A stretch of 64,000 nucleotides of DNA from a phage: assembly GCA_020279385.1 (NCBI GenBank), contig GCA_020279385.1_4762.2; one strand, written 5' to 3'. Below the pieces are notes generated by a model. It saw only the letters and a program-made list of their open reading frames with translations, did not search any database and had not been told where the DNA came from. Of the stretch, positions 8,460 through 13,564 are shown one piece after another. A program made the translations under genes and the position numbers. How positions within the stretch are numbered: position 1 is the stretch's first letter; every line of letters starts with the position of its first letter.

Positions 8460-9056
8460 ATGAAAGAACTTGAATTAAAATACTATGCACACTCACAAAT
8501 TGGCGTCGAAACAATCTGTGATTTGTGGGTAGCAATGTATGACGGGTACAATATCGTAGATCATGCTAACACACTAAAACACGAATTTTATTATGATACC
8601 GAAGAACATGCACTGCGTCGAAAAGGAATTTATGCTCGACTTGACGTTAATAGATCATTGATCATGGTCAAAATAGGTGATGGTGAATCTGGACTATTCA
8701 ACCGAGAAGAAATTACTTTTTCAACAATGGATGATTTTTATCACTATGTTGATAGTCTAGGCGTAAACTCCGACCTTATCGTTCCTTTATTGCAAGTAAT
8801 GACATACCGCAAGTCATTGACACTTGACCTTGAGGGTGCTATAGTGGAAATGTGCAAAGACACTTTATATTATTGCAAAGTCGGTGAAGGGATGGGCGAT
8901 GCTCACTATGAACTTGAGTTCGAGTTAAAATCAGGTGACGAAAAAGCACTTGACATTATCCGAGAAATGATGCTAAAATATGTTGGTGACGATTTACGTC
9001 CTAGCGAAATCTCAAAAGCTGAACGTGGTTTTCAATTAATGACTAAAGAGGGTTAA
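8460..9056 (+). CDS. CYTH-like protein (class IV adenylyl cyclase / triphosphate tunnel metalloenzyme-like)
   Basis: 198 aa; N-terminal ExExK (MKELELKYY) and C-terminal acidic YELEFELK patch typical of CYTH domains; not present between rnh and dsbA in T4 as far as I recall. Confidence 0.5.
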   Translation: MKELELKYYAHSQIGVETICDLWVAMYDGYNIVDHANTLKHEFYYDTEEHALRRKGIYARLDVNRSLIMVKIGDGESGLFNREEITFSTMDDFYHYVDSLGVNSDLIVPLLQVMTYRKSLTLDLEGAIVEMCKDTLYYCKVGEGMGDAHYELEFELKSGDEKALDIIREMMLKYVGDDLRPSEISKAERGFQLMTKEG

Positions 9057-9060
9057 TATT

Positions 9061-9336
9061 ATGACTGAACAGAAAAAAGAAAAAGTAGTATTTGATGAAG
9101 CAGTACACGGAAATACCCTGGCACAACTGATTAAAGAAGCCAGCGATCAGAAAACCATTCAAGAAGCATATGGCGATAAGATCAAAGAGATCAAACAGCG
9201 TGCTAAAGAAGAATTAGGCGTAGATGGTAAAATGTGGGGCATTCTGTTTAAACTGTATCACCAGCAACAGCGCGAAACCTTCGAAGCAGAACGCGACGAA
9301 GCGGTAGAACTCTATGATCGGGTGTTCAATGCTTAA
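9061..9336 (+). CDS. dsbA: dsDNA-binding late-transcription protein DsbA
   Basis: 91 aa, lysine/glutamate-rich; size and position (rnh-dsbA-33) as in T4. Confidence 0.7.
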   Translation: MTEQKKEKVVFDEAVHGNTLAQLIKEASDQKTIQEAYGDKIKEIKQRAKEELGVDGKMWGILFKLYHQQQRETFEAERDEAVELYDRVFNA

Positions 9337-9583
9337 TGAACATGCGGTAAAAGCCGCAAACAAAACAGCAAACGGTCTTGCAATCGAAAAACTGGTTGTT
9401 GAAGAGGGATTGACTTATCTTGAAGCGACAACGCAGTTTGTAGAGGAAAACTCTATCGAATATGGTCACTATCAGAAGTATATTCCGGTGTCCATTATTG
9501 ACAAGATCACACAAGAATGTATAGTAAATAGAACGCTCAGGAAGGGAGTGATCGACGAACCGACCAACACTCTCGATATTTAA
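9314..9583 (+). CDS. 33: Late transcription co-activator gp33
   Basis: LTYLEATTQFVEENSI and C-terminal TNTLDI match T4 gp33 as recalled; start could be 9314 or 9329. Confidence 0.75.
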   Translation: MIGCSMLNEHAVKAANKTANGLAIEKLVVEEGLTYLEATTQFVEENSIEYGHYQKYIPVSIIDKITQECIVNRTLRKGVIDEPTNTLDI

Positions 9584-9592
9584 GGGGTATGT

Positions 9593-10270
9593 ATGATCAG
9601 AAACCGTCTTCCTCCAGATCCAGATATGCGAATTAATGCTAAATCTGTGTATATGTTATATTGCATGATGAAAGCTCATATGAACGGGCGTTATGATTGC
9701 GTAAAATATAATTGGAGGATGCGGTTGTCTGATGCCGCATTCAATAAACGCAGAGATAAGTATTATTTCGCAAAATTAGCGGAAAAGTACAATCTAAGAG
9801 AATTATACTTCTTATTCCTAAGCAATCTGGTAGCCAATACCGATGCATGGGTAGGTGAAATCACCGATGTTGACGCATACGGCTTTTATATGGAATACAT
9901 AGGAAAGATAACTGATGCAGCAACACGATTTGACGATGACATTAAAAGTCTGGTATACTTCTCAGAGAAACGCGGGGTTACTCTTAAAGAGCTAATTACA
10001 TACAATCCCGCAACCGAAACTAGCGGTATCTTTAAACTACTGCAAAATCGGATTATATCGTTTGAGTCGTTTATGTTGTTAGATAGCTTTCTAAATATAA
10101 TCGACGAACACGATAAGGTAGCCAAAGACTTGATTTGGCAAACTTATAGTGTTAAAATGAAGGCGTACAAGAAACTACTTGTTATTGACGCCGCAAAAGC
10201 AAGAGCATTATTTGTTAAAGTAGTTAAAGAGTGTAAAGAAATATCGAGGTTAAAAGGTGAAAACATATGA
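9593..10270 (+). CDS. 59: gp59 helicase loader
   Basis: 225 aa; KSVYMLYCMMKAHMNGRYDCVKYNWRMRLSDAAFNKRRDKYYF... closely matches T4 gp59 as recalled. Confidence 0.9.
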   Translation: MIRNRLPPDPDMRINAKSVYMLYCMMKAHMNGRYDCVKYNWRMRLSDAAFNKRRDKYYFAKLAEKYNLRELYFLFLSNLVANTDAWVGEITDVDAYGFYMEYIGKITDAATRFDDDIKSLVYFSEKRGVTLKELITYNPATETSGIFKLLQNRIISFESFMLLDSFLNIIDEHDKVAKDLIWQTYSVKMKAYKKLLVIDAAKARALFVKVVKECKEISRLKGENI

Positions 10271-10853
10271 TCCTGAATTGTATGCTCGTTGTCATGAACT
10301 CTTTAAATATGATAACGGTAAGCTGATTCGCAAGATATCGACAAACCGAAAGCATAAAGTCGGATCTAGAGCGGGTGGAGTTAATCCTAGTCATGGATAC
10401 AGATTGGTGTGTATCGATGGTAAACATCATAAAGAGCATAGAATAATTTTCTTTATGCATCATGGATACATGCCAAAATACGTTGACCATGTTAACCGAA
10501 TTATAACAGATAATCGGATTGAAAACTTGAGAGATGCGAACGAGCAACAAAACTCAAGAAATATGGGTAAACAGAAAGGTCGATCGTCTGAATATATCGG
10601 TGTTAGTCTTTATAAACGAGATGGTAAATATGTTGCCAATATTCAGGTCGAAAGAAAGAAGTTGATATATTTGGGAATATATGTTCATGAGAAAGCGGCA
10701 GCACTTGCGAGAAACTTTGTTGCTGATGCTATAGACCCAAACTTTTTCAACAAAACAGAAGTAGTTGACATTTCTCCCGAAGAGATGTTAGAATTTGAAA
10801 ATAGAAAGCCAAAACTGTTAGATATAATTGATAAAGTATTGACAAGCAATTAA
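10257..10853 (+). CDS. HNH homing endonuclease with AP2-type DNA-binding domain (free-standing, inserted between 59 and 32)
   Basis: GTG start overlapping gp59 end; HNH_3-like GYRLVCIDGKHHKEHRIIF...VDHVNRIITDNRIENLR; AP2-like SEYIGVSLYKRDGKYVANIQ...GIYVHEKAAALA. Confidence 0.8.
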   Translation: MKTYDPELYARCHELFKYDNGKLIRKISTNRKHKVGSRAGGVNPSHGYRLVCIDGKHHKEHRIIFFMHHGYMPKYVDHVNRIITDNRIENLRDANEQQNSRNMGKQKGRSSEYIGVSLYKRDGKYVANIQVERKKLIYLGIYVHEKAAALARNFVADAIDPNFFNKTEVVDISPEEMLEFENRKPKLLDIIDKVLTSN

Positions 10854-10913
10854 GTATCTGATATAGTATAAAACGTAAATTAATCAATAGTTAATGTATA
10901 AAGAGGTATAATT

Positions 10914-11888
10914 ATGAACATGTTTCGTCGTCAAGATAGCTCCAAACTGCAAGCTCAACTGGCCGCACTGAAAGGTGGCAACGGTTTCTCCAAAGAAGAT
11001 CCGAAAGAGTGGAAGATTAAGACTGATGCAGCAGGTAACGGTGAAGCCCTGATTCGCTTCCTGCCGTCTAAGACAGAAGACGGTCTGCCGATTGTGAAAC
11101 TGGTAAACCATTCCTTCAAAGTTAATGGTAAATGGTATTGGGAAAACTGCTCCAGCACCCACGGTGATTTTGATTCTTGCCCTGTGTGCAAATATATTAA
11201 CGAAAAAGATCTGTACAATACCGATAAAACCGAATGGCAACTGATTAAGCGTAAAGCGTCTTACTACGCAAATATTCTGGTACTGAAAGATCCTCAAGCA
11301 CCAGAAAATGAAGGTAAGGTATTCAAATTCCGCTTCGGTCAGAAAATTTATGATAAGATCGTTGCGATGGTGAACGTGAATACCGATATGGGCGAAGTTC
11401 CGGTAGATGTAACTTGTGTGTTCTCCGGTGCTAACTTCCTCCTGAAAGCTAAGAAGGTTGATAAACACCAGAACTATGATGATTCTCGTTTCATGCAGCA
11501 ATCACAGCTTCCGAAAATTGAAGACGAAGCATATCAGAAATATCTGATGGAAAACATGGTTGATCTGAGTGAGATTGTAGCGCCTAGCCAGTTTAAACCG
11601 TTCGATGAACTGGAAACCAAATTTAAGAAAACTATGGGCGTTTCTATGGTAGCTGGTGCTGCGGCTTCCAGTGCCGCGGCAGCGATTAACAGCCAGCTTG
11701 ACGATTTTGACGCACAGATGAATGCATTCGATTCTGGTATGACCGCAGCTAGCACTGTAGTTGGTATTAACGCAGCTAGCACGGCGTTAGATTCTTCCGC
11801 TGATGACCTGATGGCATCTCTGGATCTGGGTGGCGGTACTTCCTCCGCTTCTGATCTGGATGACCTGGATTCTCTGTTAGCGATGTAA
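10914..11888 (+). CDS. 32: gp32 single-stranded DNA-binding protein
   Basis: 324 aa; [61 protein letters not shown] match T4 gp32 as recalled; S/A/D-rich C-terminal tail. Confidence 0.95.
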
Positions 11889-11896
11889 TGAATTTT

Positions 11897-11926
11897 ACAG
11901 CCTCCCTTCGGGGAGGCTTTTTTATT
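11897..11926 (+). terminator. Rho-independent terminator after gene 32
   Basis: AGCCTCCCTTCGGGGAGGCT hairpin followed by TTTTTTATT. Confidence 0.7.
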
Positions 11927-11950
11927 GCCTAAATTTTTATGAAAAAGGTG

Positions 11951-11979
11951 TTGACATGCTGATGTTAGGATGTATAATA
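11951..11979 (+). promoter_or_regulatory. Sigma70-like early promoter
   Basis: TTGACA - 17 nt - TATAAT, then the recurrent ...ACAAACATCGAAACA...AGGAGG leader. Confidence 0.6.
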
Positions 11980-12008
11980 CAAACATCGAAACAAAGGAGG
12001 ATAAAATT

Positions 12009-13187
12009 ATGTTAGTACGTCAAGCACATGAGATTCGTATAGAAATAAAAGGAAACACGAAAACTCCCTTCTATTGGGAAAATGTTGTAAAAAATTCATG
12101 TTTGGAAGTTGGTTATTCTTTCATGGGGTTTGTTGGAGAATGGTCTGGTCTCAAAACAAAAGCTCTTATATTATGTAATAACAAGCATGAATACACATCA
12201 ACTCTAGCAAATATCAGGAAAAAAGTTTCGTGTAAGAAATGTGTGGTTGATTCTCAAAGATTAAACCTAAACCATGTGATAGAAAGAATAAAACAAGAAA
12301 CAAACGATGTATTTGTTGGTTTTGTTGGTGGGGAGTATAAAAATAGCAGAACAAGACTCATTATGAACTGTGCAAACGGACACACATACCAACCAACATA
12401 TACAGATTTCATTCATCAAAAAACAAGATGTCCTTTATGTAACGGTGGCAAGATGTATGATAAAGAAGATTCCTTATCTTATATAAATGAAAATAAAGGA
12501 GATTATAAATTTTTGGGTATAATTGGGGAATGGAAAGGAACAAAAACTAAACTTAAATTTGAGTGTCCTAATAATCACATTTACGAACAAAGTTATGATA
12601 AGTTCAAACTAGGTCGTCGGTGTCACAAATGTAGCGGAACAGCACCAATAACAAAAAGTGACCGATTAAAACAAATTGAAAAAATATGCGAAACCAACAG
12701 ACTAAAATTTATTGGGATTTCAGGAAAGTGGAAAGGTGCATTAACAAGAATACTTCTGACATGCGAACGTAACCATGAATGGGTTGTAACTATTGATAAT
12801 TTTGTTAATCGCGGAACACGCTGCCCGTTGTGTTCTAAGCATGGTTATCAGGCATTAAAGACAGGAACTCTTTATATACAGAAATTAACCAACAATGATT
12901 CCTTTGTTGGCGTGAAATTTGGAATAACAAACAAAGAAACACATGAGCGCATGAGAAACCAATCTCGTGTTTCAAAGTTCGATCACGAGATCTTTTATGA
13001 ATTGACTTTACAAGATGGTCAAAAGATCTTAGAATTAGAAAACAAAATCAAGGAAGCGATGAAAGGTAAAACTTCCTATATCTCGAAAGAAGATATGCCG
13101 GATGGCTGGACAGAGACAGTAGCGCCGTCTGAATTGAGCACTATCATGTATATCGTAAAATCTTTTGAAAAAGAGTTGACAGCGTAA
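12009..13187 (+). CDS. Four tandem zinc-ribbon repeats plus C-terminal GIY-YIG-superfamily (T5orf172-like) domain; putative homing-endonuclease-like or DNA-binding protein
   Basis: Four ~65-aa repeats each with GxxGEWxGxKTK...C..NH.Y...Y..F.....C..C; C-terminus GTLYIQKL...VGVKFGITNKETHERMRNQ...DGWTET; start reassigned to ATG 12009 after AGGAGG. Confidence 0.5.
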   Translation: MLVRQAHEIRIEIKGNTKTPFYWENVVKNSCLEVGYSFMGFVGEWSGLKTKALILCNNKHEYTSTLANIRKKVSCKKCVVDSQRLNLNHVIERIKQETNDVFVGFVGGEYKNSRTRLIMNCANGHTYQPTYTDFIHQKTRCPLCNGGKMYDKEDSLSYINENKGDYKFLGIIGEWKGTKTKLKFECPNNHIYEQSYDKFKLGRRCHKCSGTAPITKSDRLKQIEKICETNRLKFIGISGKWKGALTRILLTCERNHEWVVTIDNFVNRGTRCPLCSKHGYQALKTGTLYIQKLTNNDSFVGVKFGITNKETHERMRNQSRVSKFDHEIFYELTLQDGQKILELENKIKEAMKGKTSYISKEDMPDGWTETVAPSELSTIMYIVKSFEKELTA

Positions 13188-13203
13188 CGCAACAGTGTAT
13201 AAT
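13176..13203 (+). promoter_or_regulatory. Sigma70-like early promoter
   Basis: TTGACA - 16 nt - TATAAT at the 3' end of the preceding ORF, followed by ACAAACATCGAAACAAAGAGAGG leader. Confidence 0.45.
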
Positions 13204-13234
13204 ACAAACATCGAAACAAAGAGAGGATTATATT

Positions 13235-13564
13235 ATGTGGACAGTAGAAAAAATCGTAGACGAATCAACCGAAATTGTCTCATGCGGGACTATTGAAGAA
13301 TGTCTTAACGCCGCTAACCGCGATTGTATTACGGTTTATGAATCTCGTCGCGGGGATGGCAGCTTAATTCAAAGTGATTATCGTTACACCGCACATAAAA
13401 TTGTATTCCGTTTCTGGGAAAACGGTGTTAATGTTGGTGTCAGCTTACTGAAAATGTGGCGTGATTATTCCGAACGCTATTATGTTTCTCCCGATGATGG
13501 TAATGAATTTAAAACCGAGATCACAGAAGAAAATGTAAACGAAAACTTCTTTAAACTGATTTGA
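13235..13564 (+). CDS. Hypothetical protein (109 aa)
   Basis: ORF with RBS AGAGAGG; no recognisable motif. Confidence 0.5.
   Translation: MWTVEKIVDESTEIVSCGTIEECLNAANRDCITVYESRRGDGSLIQSDYRYTAHKIVFRFWENGVNVGVSLLKMWRDYSERYYVSPDDGNEFKTEITEENVNENFFKLI

Follow-up and report, generated by a model that had tools for sequence, protein, structure and literature searches.

Homing endonucleases that combine an HNH nuclease with an AP2 domain, the HNH-AP2 class, were reportedly described by Magnani et al. in 2004. To our knowledge, almost nothing is known experimentally about the target specificity of these enzymes. The class has been published for T4-related phages (PMC1524935; PMC2993671 Table 5, Petrov et al. 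2010) and was broadly surveyed under the name 'IPA-HNH' as homing endonuclease genes (HEGs) adjoining essential genes (PMC10448857, Barth et al. 2023).

Phage T4 carries a homing endonuclease gene of the GIY-YIG type, segG, between genes 59 and 32. The first-pass annotation of the DNA analyzed here had taken these two genes to be adjacent in T4, which is wrong because segG lies between them (PMC2988022 Table 1); a valid comparison is instead provided by RB49, JSE and GEC-3S. Within the 32/59 slot, segG is a promoter-less cassette with gene 32 promoters embedded in its coding region and a reading frame that runs into pre-existing recipient sequence, and it is present in some relatives and missing in others such as T2 and RB69 (PMC2988022; PMC535899). 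SegG cuts in gene 32, and segG is preferentially inherited in T4 x T2 crosses (PMC2988022; PMC535899).

Here, we describe an HNH-AP2 gene between genes 59 and 32 of a Krischvirus, an RB49-like, T4-type coliphage, of which a stretch of 64,000 nt was analyzed (the window). Judging from sequence comparison, we consider it probable, at roughly 0.77, that this is a free-standing homing endonuclease gene that recently spread, and probably still spreads, in Krischvirus via intronless homing.

Over positions 9000-13500, the window shares 99.2% identity with Escherichia phage vB_EcoM_Skers and 94-97% with RB49, Phi1, JSE, GEC-3S and about 50 other records. All features described below are on the plus strand. 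Gene 59 encodes the helicase loader (9593..10270; Pfam T4_Gp59_N and T4_Gp59_C, junction alignments) and ends with a TGA at 10268-10270, and gene 32 encodes the essential ssDNA-binding protein (10914..11888; Pfam gp32 1e-51). The HNH-AP2 ORF (198 aa, 10257..10853) starts with a GTG, shares 14 nt with gene 59 and has a GAGG Shine-Dalgarno sequence (10246..10249) 7 nt ahead of the GTG. With a GC3 of 0.30 versus 0.37 in gene 59 and 0.45 in gene 32, it is AT-richer than its neighbours.

The ORF product matched Pfam HNH_3 (PF13392) with 43.6 bits (E 2.2e-11, residues 61-101), exceeding the curated cut-off of 24.8 bits, as well as PHROG_99 'HNH endonuclease' (E 1.5e-50). The match to Pfam AP2 (PF00847; 23.4 bits, E 7.4e-5) stayed below the cut-off of 33.3; a precomputed PF00847 match is present on the allele of phage E26 and on 13 other homologues, and phmmer gave an E value of 0.0018 against WRI1. 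The GTG start, the overlap with gene 59 and the succession of an HNH_3 and an AP2-like domain, which the first-pass annotation had read from the letters, were confirmed in this way, with HNH_3 above and AP2 below the Pfam threshold. Nucleases of the HNH (His-Me finger) type require a catalytic His as general base with an adjacent Asp, together with structural and metal-binding Asn residues. Across 47 aligned homologues, R62, D77, H78, N86, R87, E89, N90, R92 and N102 proved invariant; D77, H78, N86, N90 and N102 provide the required His/Asp and Asn residues, and the catalytic set of the nuclease motif (residues 61-102, 10437..10562; Pfam HNH_3 and alignment) is therefore intact.

Based on the same 47 homologues, an AlphaFold2 model was built (mean pLDDT 94.5, pTM 0.81). 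The predicted fold of the HNH domain is beta-beta-alpha-metal, and the AP2-type DNA-binding domain (residues 112-159, 10590..10733) is modelled as a three-stranded antiparallel sheet (116-119, 124-132, 135-142) packed against one helix (145-159). The HNH-AP2 (IPA-HNH) class is defined by a short phage protein in which an HNH domain at the N-terminus precedes an AP2 domain at the C-terminus, and from domain matches and model we conclude that the ORF product is a predicted I-HmuI-like HNH nuclease fused to an AP2 DNA-binding fold. The protein ends in a tail of ~35 aa containing a helix (residues 174-197, 10776..10847; alignment and AlphaFold2). This tail has no counterpart in the other homologues of the 47-sequence alignment and zero matches in Pfam, and its coding DNA doubles as the gene 32 promoter region. 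An NCBIfam search yielded no match for the protein nor for a second nuclease ORF (11970-13187), and no second HNH-AP2 paralogue was found within the 64-kb window. In GenBank, the gene is already labelled 'putative HNH homing endonuclease' (Skers) and 'homing endonuclease' (ELT4); the label 'Fis family transcriptional regulator', given to the E26 allele in two records, is unsupported by domain evidence.

To learn how the gene is distributed, loci of ~7 kb each were compared across Krischvirus. A search with the gene identified it in 12 phage records, every time between genes 59 and 32, and a search with the RB49 junction identified an uninterrupted 59-32 junction in 47 Krischvirus records. The 59 Krischvirus records thus divide into 12 carriers and 47 with an intact 59-32 spacer of 60-72 bp (60 bp in RB49, JSE and GEC-3S); after removal of GenBank/RefSeq duplicates, roughly 12 carriers remain among 52 genomes, about one in five. 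Ten copies are 98.6-100% identical to the window, with the window itself as reference, and two (E26, 011D4) are 83% identical. Both alleles of the locus, filled and empty, occur within single ICTV species: in Krischvirus RB49, kvi and 011D4 have the gene while RB49, Sf20 and PHB13 do not, and in Krischvirus gec3s, Makalu_002 and E26 have it while GEC-3S and Makalu_001 do not. Scans of IMG/VR with gp59 and with the endonuclease returned three Krischvirus loci, all insert-free, plus distant homologues, and little beyond INPHARED. Sporadic presence at one locus among close relatives, side by side with intact empty sites, is the pattern expected of intronless homing. The comparison of the 59-32 region across relatives, which the first-pass annotation had proposed as a check, excludes universal presence of the gene, since 47 of the 59 records are uninterrupted.

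Additional members of the family occur elsewhere in these genomes. Paralogues with about 40% identity were found in G5211 (134196-134645), G37-3 (136583-137032), KFS-EC (11459-11938) and Makalu_003 (67300-67779), and several carriers have 2-4 tblastn places per genome, which suggests that the HNH-AP2 family has colonised several sites in Krischvirus. The best identity to anything outside the 59/32 slot is at most 49%.

Junction alignments revealed one exact insertion point common to all carriers, between GAAAC and AAATAGTTGACA. At empty sites, AAAGAAATATCTCAATTAAAAGCCGAAAC is directly followed by AAATAGTTGACAAGTAAATTTAAATCTGTATAAT, and the TTGACA found there, which overlaps the gene 59 stop, is the annotated -35 element of the gene 32 early promoter. 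In all carriers, the left junction contains AAAGAAATATCGAGGTTAAAAGGTGAAAACATATGA and the right junction ATAAAGTA(T)TTGACAAG. The cassette adds 570-586 bp net and is inserted four codons ahead of the gene 59 end, and therefore the tail of gp59 is replaced: the last gp59 codons (from about 10246) come from the cassette and read KEISRLKGENI and stop, versus KEISQLK(A/V/T)ETNS and stop in insert-free phages. The GAGG Shine-Dalgarno sequence stands in place of the TCAA of insert-free alleles and is present in 12 of 12 carriers and in none of the 18 insert-free junctions read. Both the RBS and the GTG start come with the cassette, whose reading frame continues into the old promoter.

A consensus scan detected no promoter ahead of the HNH-AP2 ORF, and both promoters that it did detect lie in the 3' coding region of the ORF. 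The first is a sigma-70-like promoter (TTGACA-18-TAGAAT, 11/12; 10765..10794), whose TAGTTGACA repeats the empty-site junction sequence. The second is the gene 32 early promoter (TTGACA-17-TATAGT, 11/12; 10839..10867), whose -35 hexamer falls in the last codons of the ORF; in the alignment it proves homologous to the early promoter annotated in RB49 and GEC-3S, where that promoter overlaps the stop codon of gene 59. RBS-sequestering hairpins regulate several T4 HEGs. RNA folding of the translation-initiation region revealed no hairpin hiding the RBS or the GTG (MFE -9 kcal/mol, z 0.25), and T4-style translational masking is therefore unsupported. Rfam returned nothing relevant on 9500-12100, including no gene 32 operator family; only sub-threshold matches at the gene 32 terminator were obtained.

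The window-type and the E26-type allele are inserted at an identical point. Identity between them is ~99% in the first ~120 nt and 93% at 10767-10826 close to the 3' end, but only 60-90% mid-gene (dS 0.78-2.2), and the final ~27 nt (from 10827) are diverged. The overall dN/dS between the alleles is 0.15 with a dS of 0.70, indicating that both encode constrained proteins under purifying selection. Amino-acid differences concentrate in residues 41-57 and 118-145, which are predicted DNA-contacting sheets; that this clustering reflects different specificity is speculation. The leader and start of gene 32 also come in two types: type A (RB49-like) with AAAAGAAGGAATAGTGAATATGTTTAAACGC and an annotated GTG start, and type B (JK32, ECD7, ELT3; region of window 10868-10935) with GTATAAAAGAGGTATAATTATGAACATTTTTCGTCGT, an ATG start and a spacer that is 12 nt longer. 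The window-type cassette is found with a type B-like leader and the E26-type cassette with a type A leader.

Purifying selection indicates that the protein matters, and it might be kept as a benefit to the phage, either as an AP2-type regulator of the embedded gene 32 promoter or as a weapon against competitors that acts by marker exclusion and is not itself copied. AP2 is a transcription-factor fold, the regulator label on the E26 allele points in the same direction, and DNA-binding domains of HEGs have been co-opted as regulators elsewhere (CapR; PMC10448857). Furthermore, the title of Liu et al. 2003, as cited in PMC535899, attributes marker exclusion to SegG, which occupies the same slot in T4. 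We nevertheless regard this explanation as unlikely: a pure regulator has no need of the nuclease catalytic residues, which are invariant, and four-fifths of the genus live without the gene. Exclusion and homing would, moreover, be two outcomes of one cut, which makes the weapon more an addition to homing than an alternative.

In the ten window-type carriers, the HNH-AP2 ORF has 10 segregating sites in 597 nt (1.7%, pi 0.0039), compared with 34 in 653 nt of gene 59 (5.2%, pi 0.0185) and 73 in 975 nt of gene 32 (7.5%, pi 0.0228). It is about five times less diverse than these flanks (Fisher p 8.6e-7; ten genomes), suggesting that the dispensable gene has a younger common ancestor than the essential genes around it. 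Carriers do not cluster by their flanks, and their flank-nearest relatives are often non-carriers: kvi and Cognac are closest to PTE-Eco09, 011D4 to RB49 and G2494 to G37-3. An element that appears younger than its flanks and phylogenetically discordant with them fits recent horizontal spread. T4-like phages recombine freely, and for this reason discordant flanks alone are no proof of nuclease-driven transfer. With 12 carriers among 59 records, low diversity and flank discordance, the comparative evidence supports the free-standing mobile HNH-AP2 gene between 59 and 32 that had been suggested from the window by itself.

An older history would have the gene as a long-standing resident of the genus, passed on by vertical descent, removed by many precise deletions and no longer mobile. 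Presence and absence by themselves do not separate gain from loss, and the insert-free phage Phi1 shares the carrier variants at codons 7 and 9 of gene 32, a possible footprint of loss. Such a history would, however, need exact restoration of the gp59 C-terminus and the promoter junction in 47 records, and 18 of 18 empty junctions read identical save one codon. Long residence also predicts the opposite of the roughly fivefold lower diversity, and the carriers are scattered among non-carrier backgrounds, so that we consider vertical descent with repeated loss quite improbable. Least credible of all is an inactive relic carried along by general recombination near gene 32: T4-related phages do contain many defunct HEGs (I-TevIII relic, JSE intron relic; PMC2993671), but the ORF is full-length in 12 of 12 carriers with its catalytic residues intact, dN/dS is 0.15 over two alleles at a dS of 0.70, and the fold is predicted with high confidence.

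The extent of the transferred DNA was delimited by comparing markers between carriers and non-carriers, which yielded a haplotype block linked to the gene (10246..10940). Among 35 positions separating most carriers from most non-carriers, 33 lie in 10246-10258 and 10832-10940, and the two remaining ones, 9096 and 9105, do not follow carrier status; no carrier-separating markers were found deeper in gene 59 or gene 32 beyond 10246-10940. On the left, linked flank markers span no more than ~10 nt, and on the right ~90 nt. A long co-conversion tract like that of T4 x T2 crosses was not found in genes 59 and 32, where the flanks are too conserved to offer many markers. The confinement of the markers to these two intervals suggests that the travelling unit consists of the ORF and, in the window type, a private gene 32 promoter/leader, which is shared by no empty genome of the collection.

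Under intronless homing, the explanation we prefer, transcription of the upstream genes 33/59 would continue into the gene, and its translation would be coupled to that of gene 59. When carrier and insert-free phages infect together, a monomer of the enzyme would bind an extended asymmetric site of the insert-free allele and nick or cut it; related phage HNH enzymes, I-HmuI among them, introduce a nick into a single strand. Recombination-dependent repair by the phage would then use the carrier genome as template and copy the cassette together with a short flank. Either the insertion, by splitting the site, or linked substitutions (10246-10258 and/or 10931-10940) could protect carriers. Because of the embedded gene 32 promoter and the gp59 codons, clean deletion would be costly, which would favour retention.

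That the enzyme cuts the empty 59/32 junction, split by the insertion, is only a hypothesis; the cut could equally lie in gene 32, as with SegG. Across 18 empty junctions, the terminal 230 nt of gene 59 hardly vary, except for a codon 5-7 nt ahead of the insertion point that has five variants; either relaxed constraint or escape from recognition could account for them. The perfectly linked changes at 10246-10258 coincide with the element's own RBS and start codon. In gene 32, clustered synonymous changes affect codons 7 and 9 (10931..10940), reading CGT...AGC in carriers versus CGC...TCT. Ten of 12 carriers, covering both alleles, have AGC at codon 9, as does one of 18 insert-free genomes (Phi1); CGT at codon 7 occurs in all 12 carriers and also in seven of the 18 insert-free genomes. 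We regard these changes as a candidate for immunity or a linked marker. A strict immunity marker they are not: the carriers Makalu002 and pEJ01 lack AGC and keep TCT, and AGC occurs in the empty Phi1. The gene 32 of Phi1 reads CGT CAA GAT AGC at about 620-640 of its locus, equivalent to window 10929-10940, a combination otherwise confined to carriers, and these variants may mark a resistant empty site or the footprint of a loss.

A more far-reaching idea is that 59/32 is a general landing pad, colonised independently by the GIY-YIG enzyme SegG in T-even phages and by HNH-AP2 in Krischvirus. The two alleles would then compete there and, since their differences concentrate in predicted DNA-contact parts, may recognize distinct variants of the target in an arms race against empty sites that resist cutting; the variable codon 5-7 nt before the insertion and the CGT...AGC of Phi1 would be examples of such sites. 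We put this forward tentatively and as rather doubtful.

Directly after gene 32, the window contains a second nuclease-type ORF (405 aa, 11970-13187). Its product contains four zinc-finger repeats of the CapR-homology type (Pfam CapR 2.7e-29, DUF4379 2.4e-11), matches PHROG_681 'endonuclease' (3e-100) and shows only a sub-threshold C-terminal hint of MUG113/T5orf172-like sequence (E 0.09). The ORF is equipped with a perfect sigma-70 promoter of its own (11951-11978), which lies past the gene 32 terminator (11899-11918). This slot is hypervariable in Krischvirus: it is empty in JSE and FL20, holds just a 109-aa ORF in kvi and ORFs of 145-485 aa elsewhere. With the HNH-AP2 gene upstream and this ORF downstream, gene 32 is bracketed by two different putative homing nuclease genes, in line with a published proposal in which genes of this kind mark the boundaries of genetic exchange beside essential genes (PMC10448857). 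Further upstream, a CYTH-domain gene ahead of dsbA (8460-9056) has sharply different alleles among Krischvirus genomes that are 96-99% identical. Among carriers, the pairwise difference is 0.14-0.18 over 8503-8899 and falls to ~0.03 near 8900, and this region is a mosaic boundary unrelated to the endonuclease gene. The Skers identities in the CYTH region, about 0.54 to every other sequence, resemble those of a divergent allele or a misalignment and were set aside.

Taken together, the locus offers a well-resolved natural case of probable intronless homing beyond the T-even phages, in which near-isogenic genomes with and without the gene number in the dozens. The exact insertion point and two diverged, possibly competing alleles make it a convenient system for studying the target specificity of HNH-AP2 enzymes and for asking why the 59/32 slot draws unrelated homing nucleases. 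Our literature search found no discussion of this 59/32 HNH-AP2 insertion. Only the convergence of different nuclease families on the slot and the two diverged alleles at one site are mildly novel; the current understanding is unchanged, and the value is modest.

Compared with the HNH-AP2 class, the Krischvirus protein shares the order of an N-terminal HNH_3 and a subsequent AP2 domain, the length of 150-200 aa, the free-standing organization and the position beside essential replication genes. It differs in its unique ~35-aa helical tail over the gene 32 promoters, and the 59/32 member is missing from the RB49, Phi1 and JSE genomes that underlie the published counts. The closest solved relative is I-HmuI, the intron-encoded HNH nicking endonuclease of SPO1 (PDB 1u3e), with 19% identity. 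Slot replacement among mobE, hef and segH in T4-related phages was reportedly described by Sandegren, Nord and Sjoberg in 2005; there, too, one intergenic slot holds unrelated endonuclease families in different relatives, but those cases concern nrd genes. Membership in the SegG/Seg family was rejected, as neither Pfam nor PHROGs gave a GIY-YIG match and the fold is HNH. T4 segG (formerly ORF 32.1) is GIY-YIG whereas the Krischvirus gene is HNH plus AP2, and neither sequence nor fold similarity was found between them; cutting and homing by SegG have been shown experimentally, whereas the Krischvirus gene is known from sequence comparison, and its insertion extends into the last gene 59 codons. 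What the two have in common is the slot and the mode of life: both lie between genes 59 and 32 in the same orientation, and both are promoter-less cassettes that carry embedded gene 32 promoters, with segG read from upstream and the Krischvirus gene probably so.
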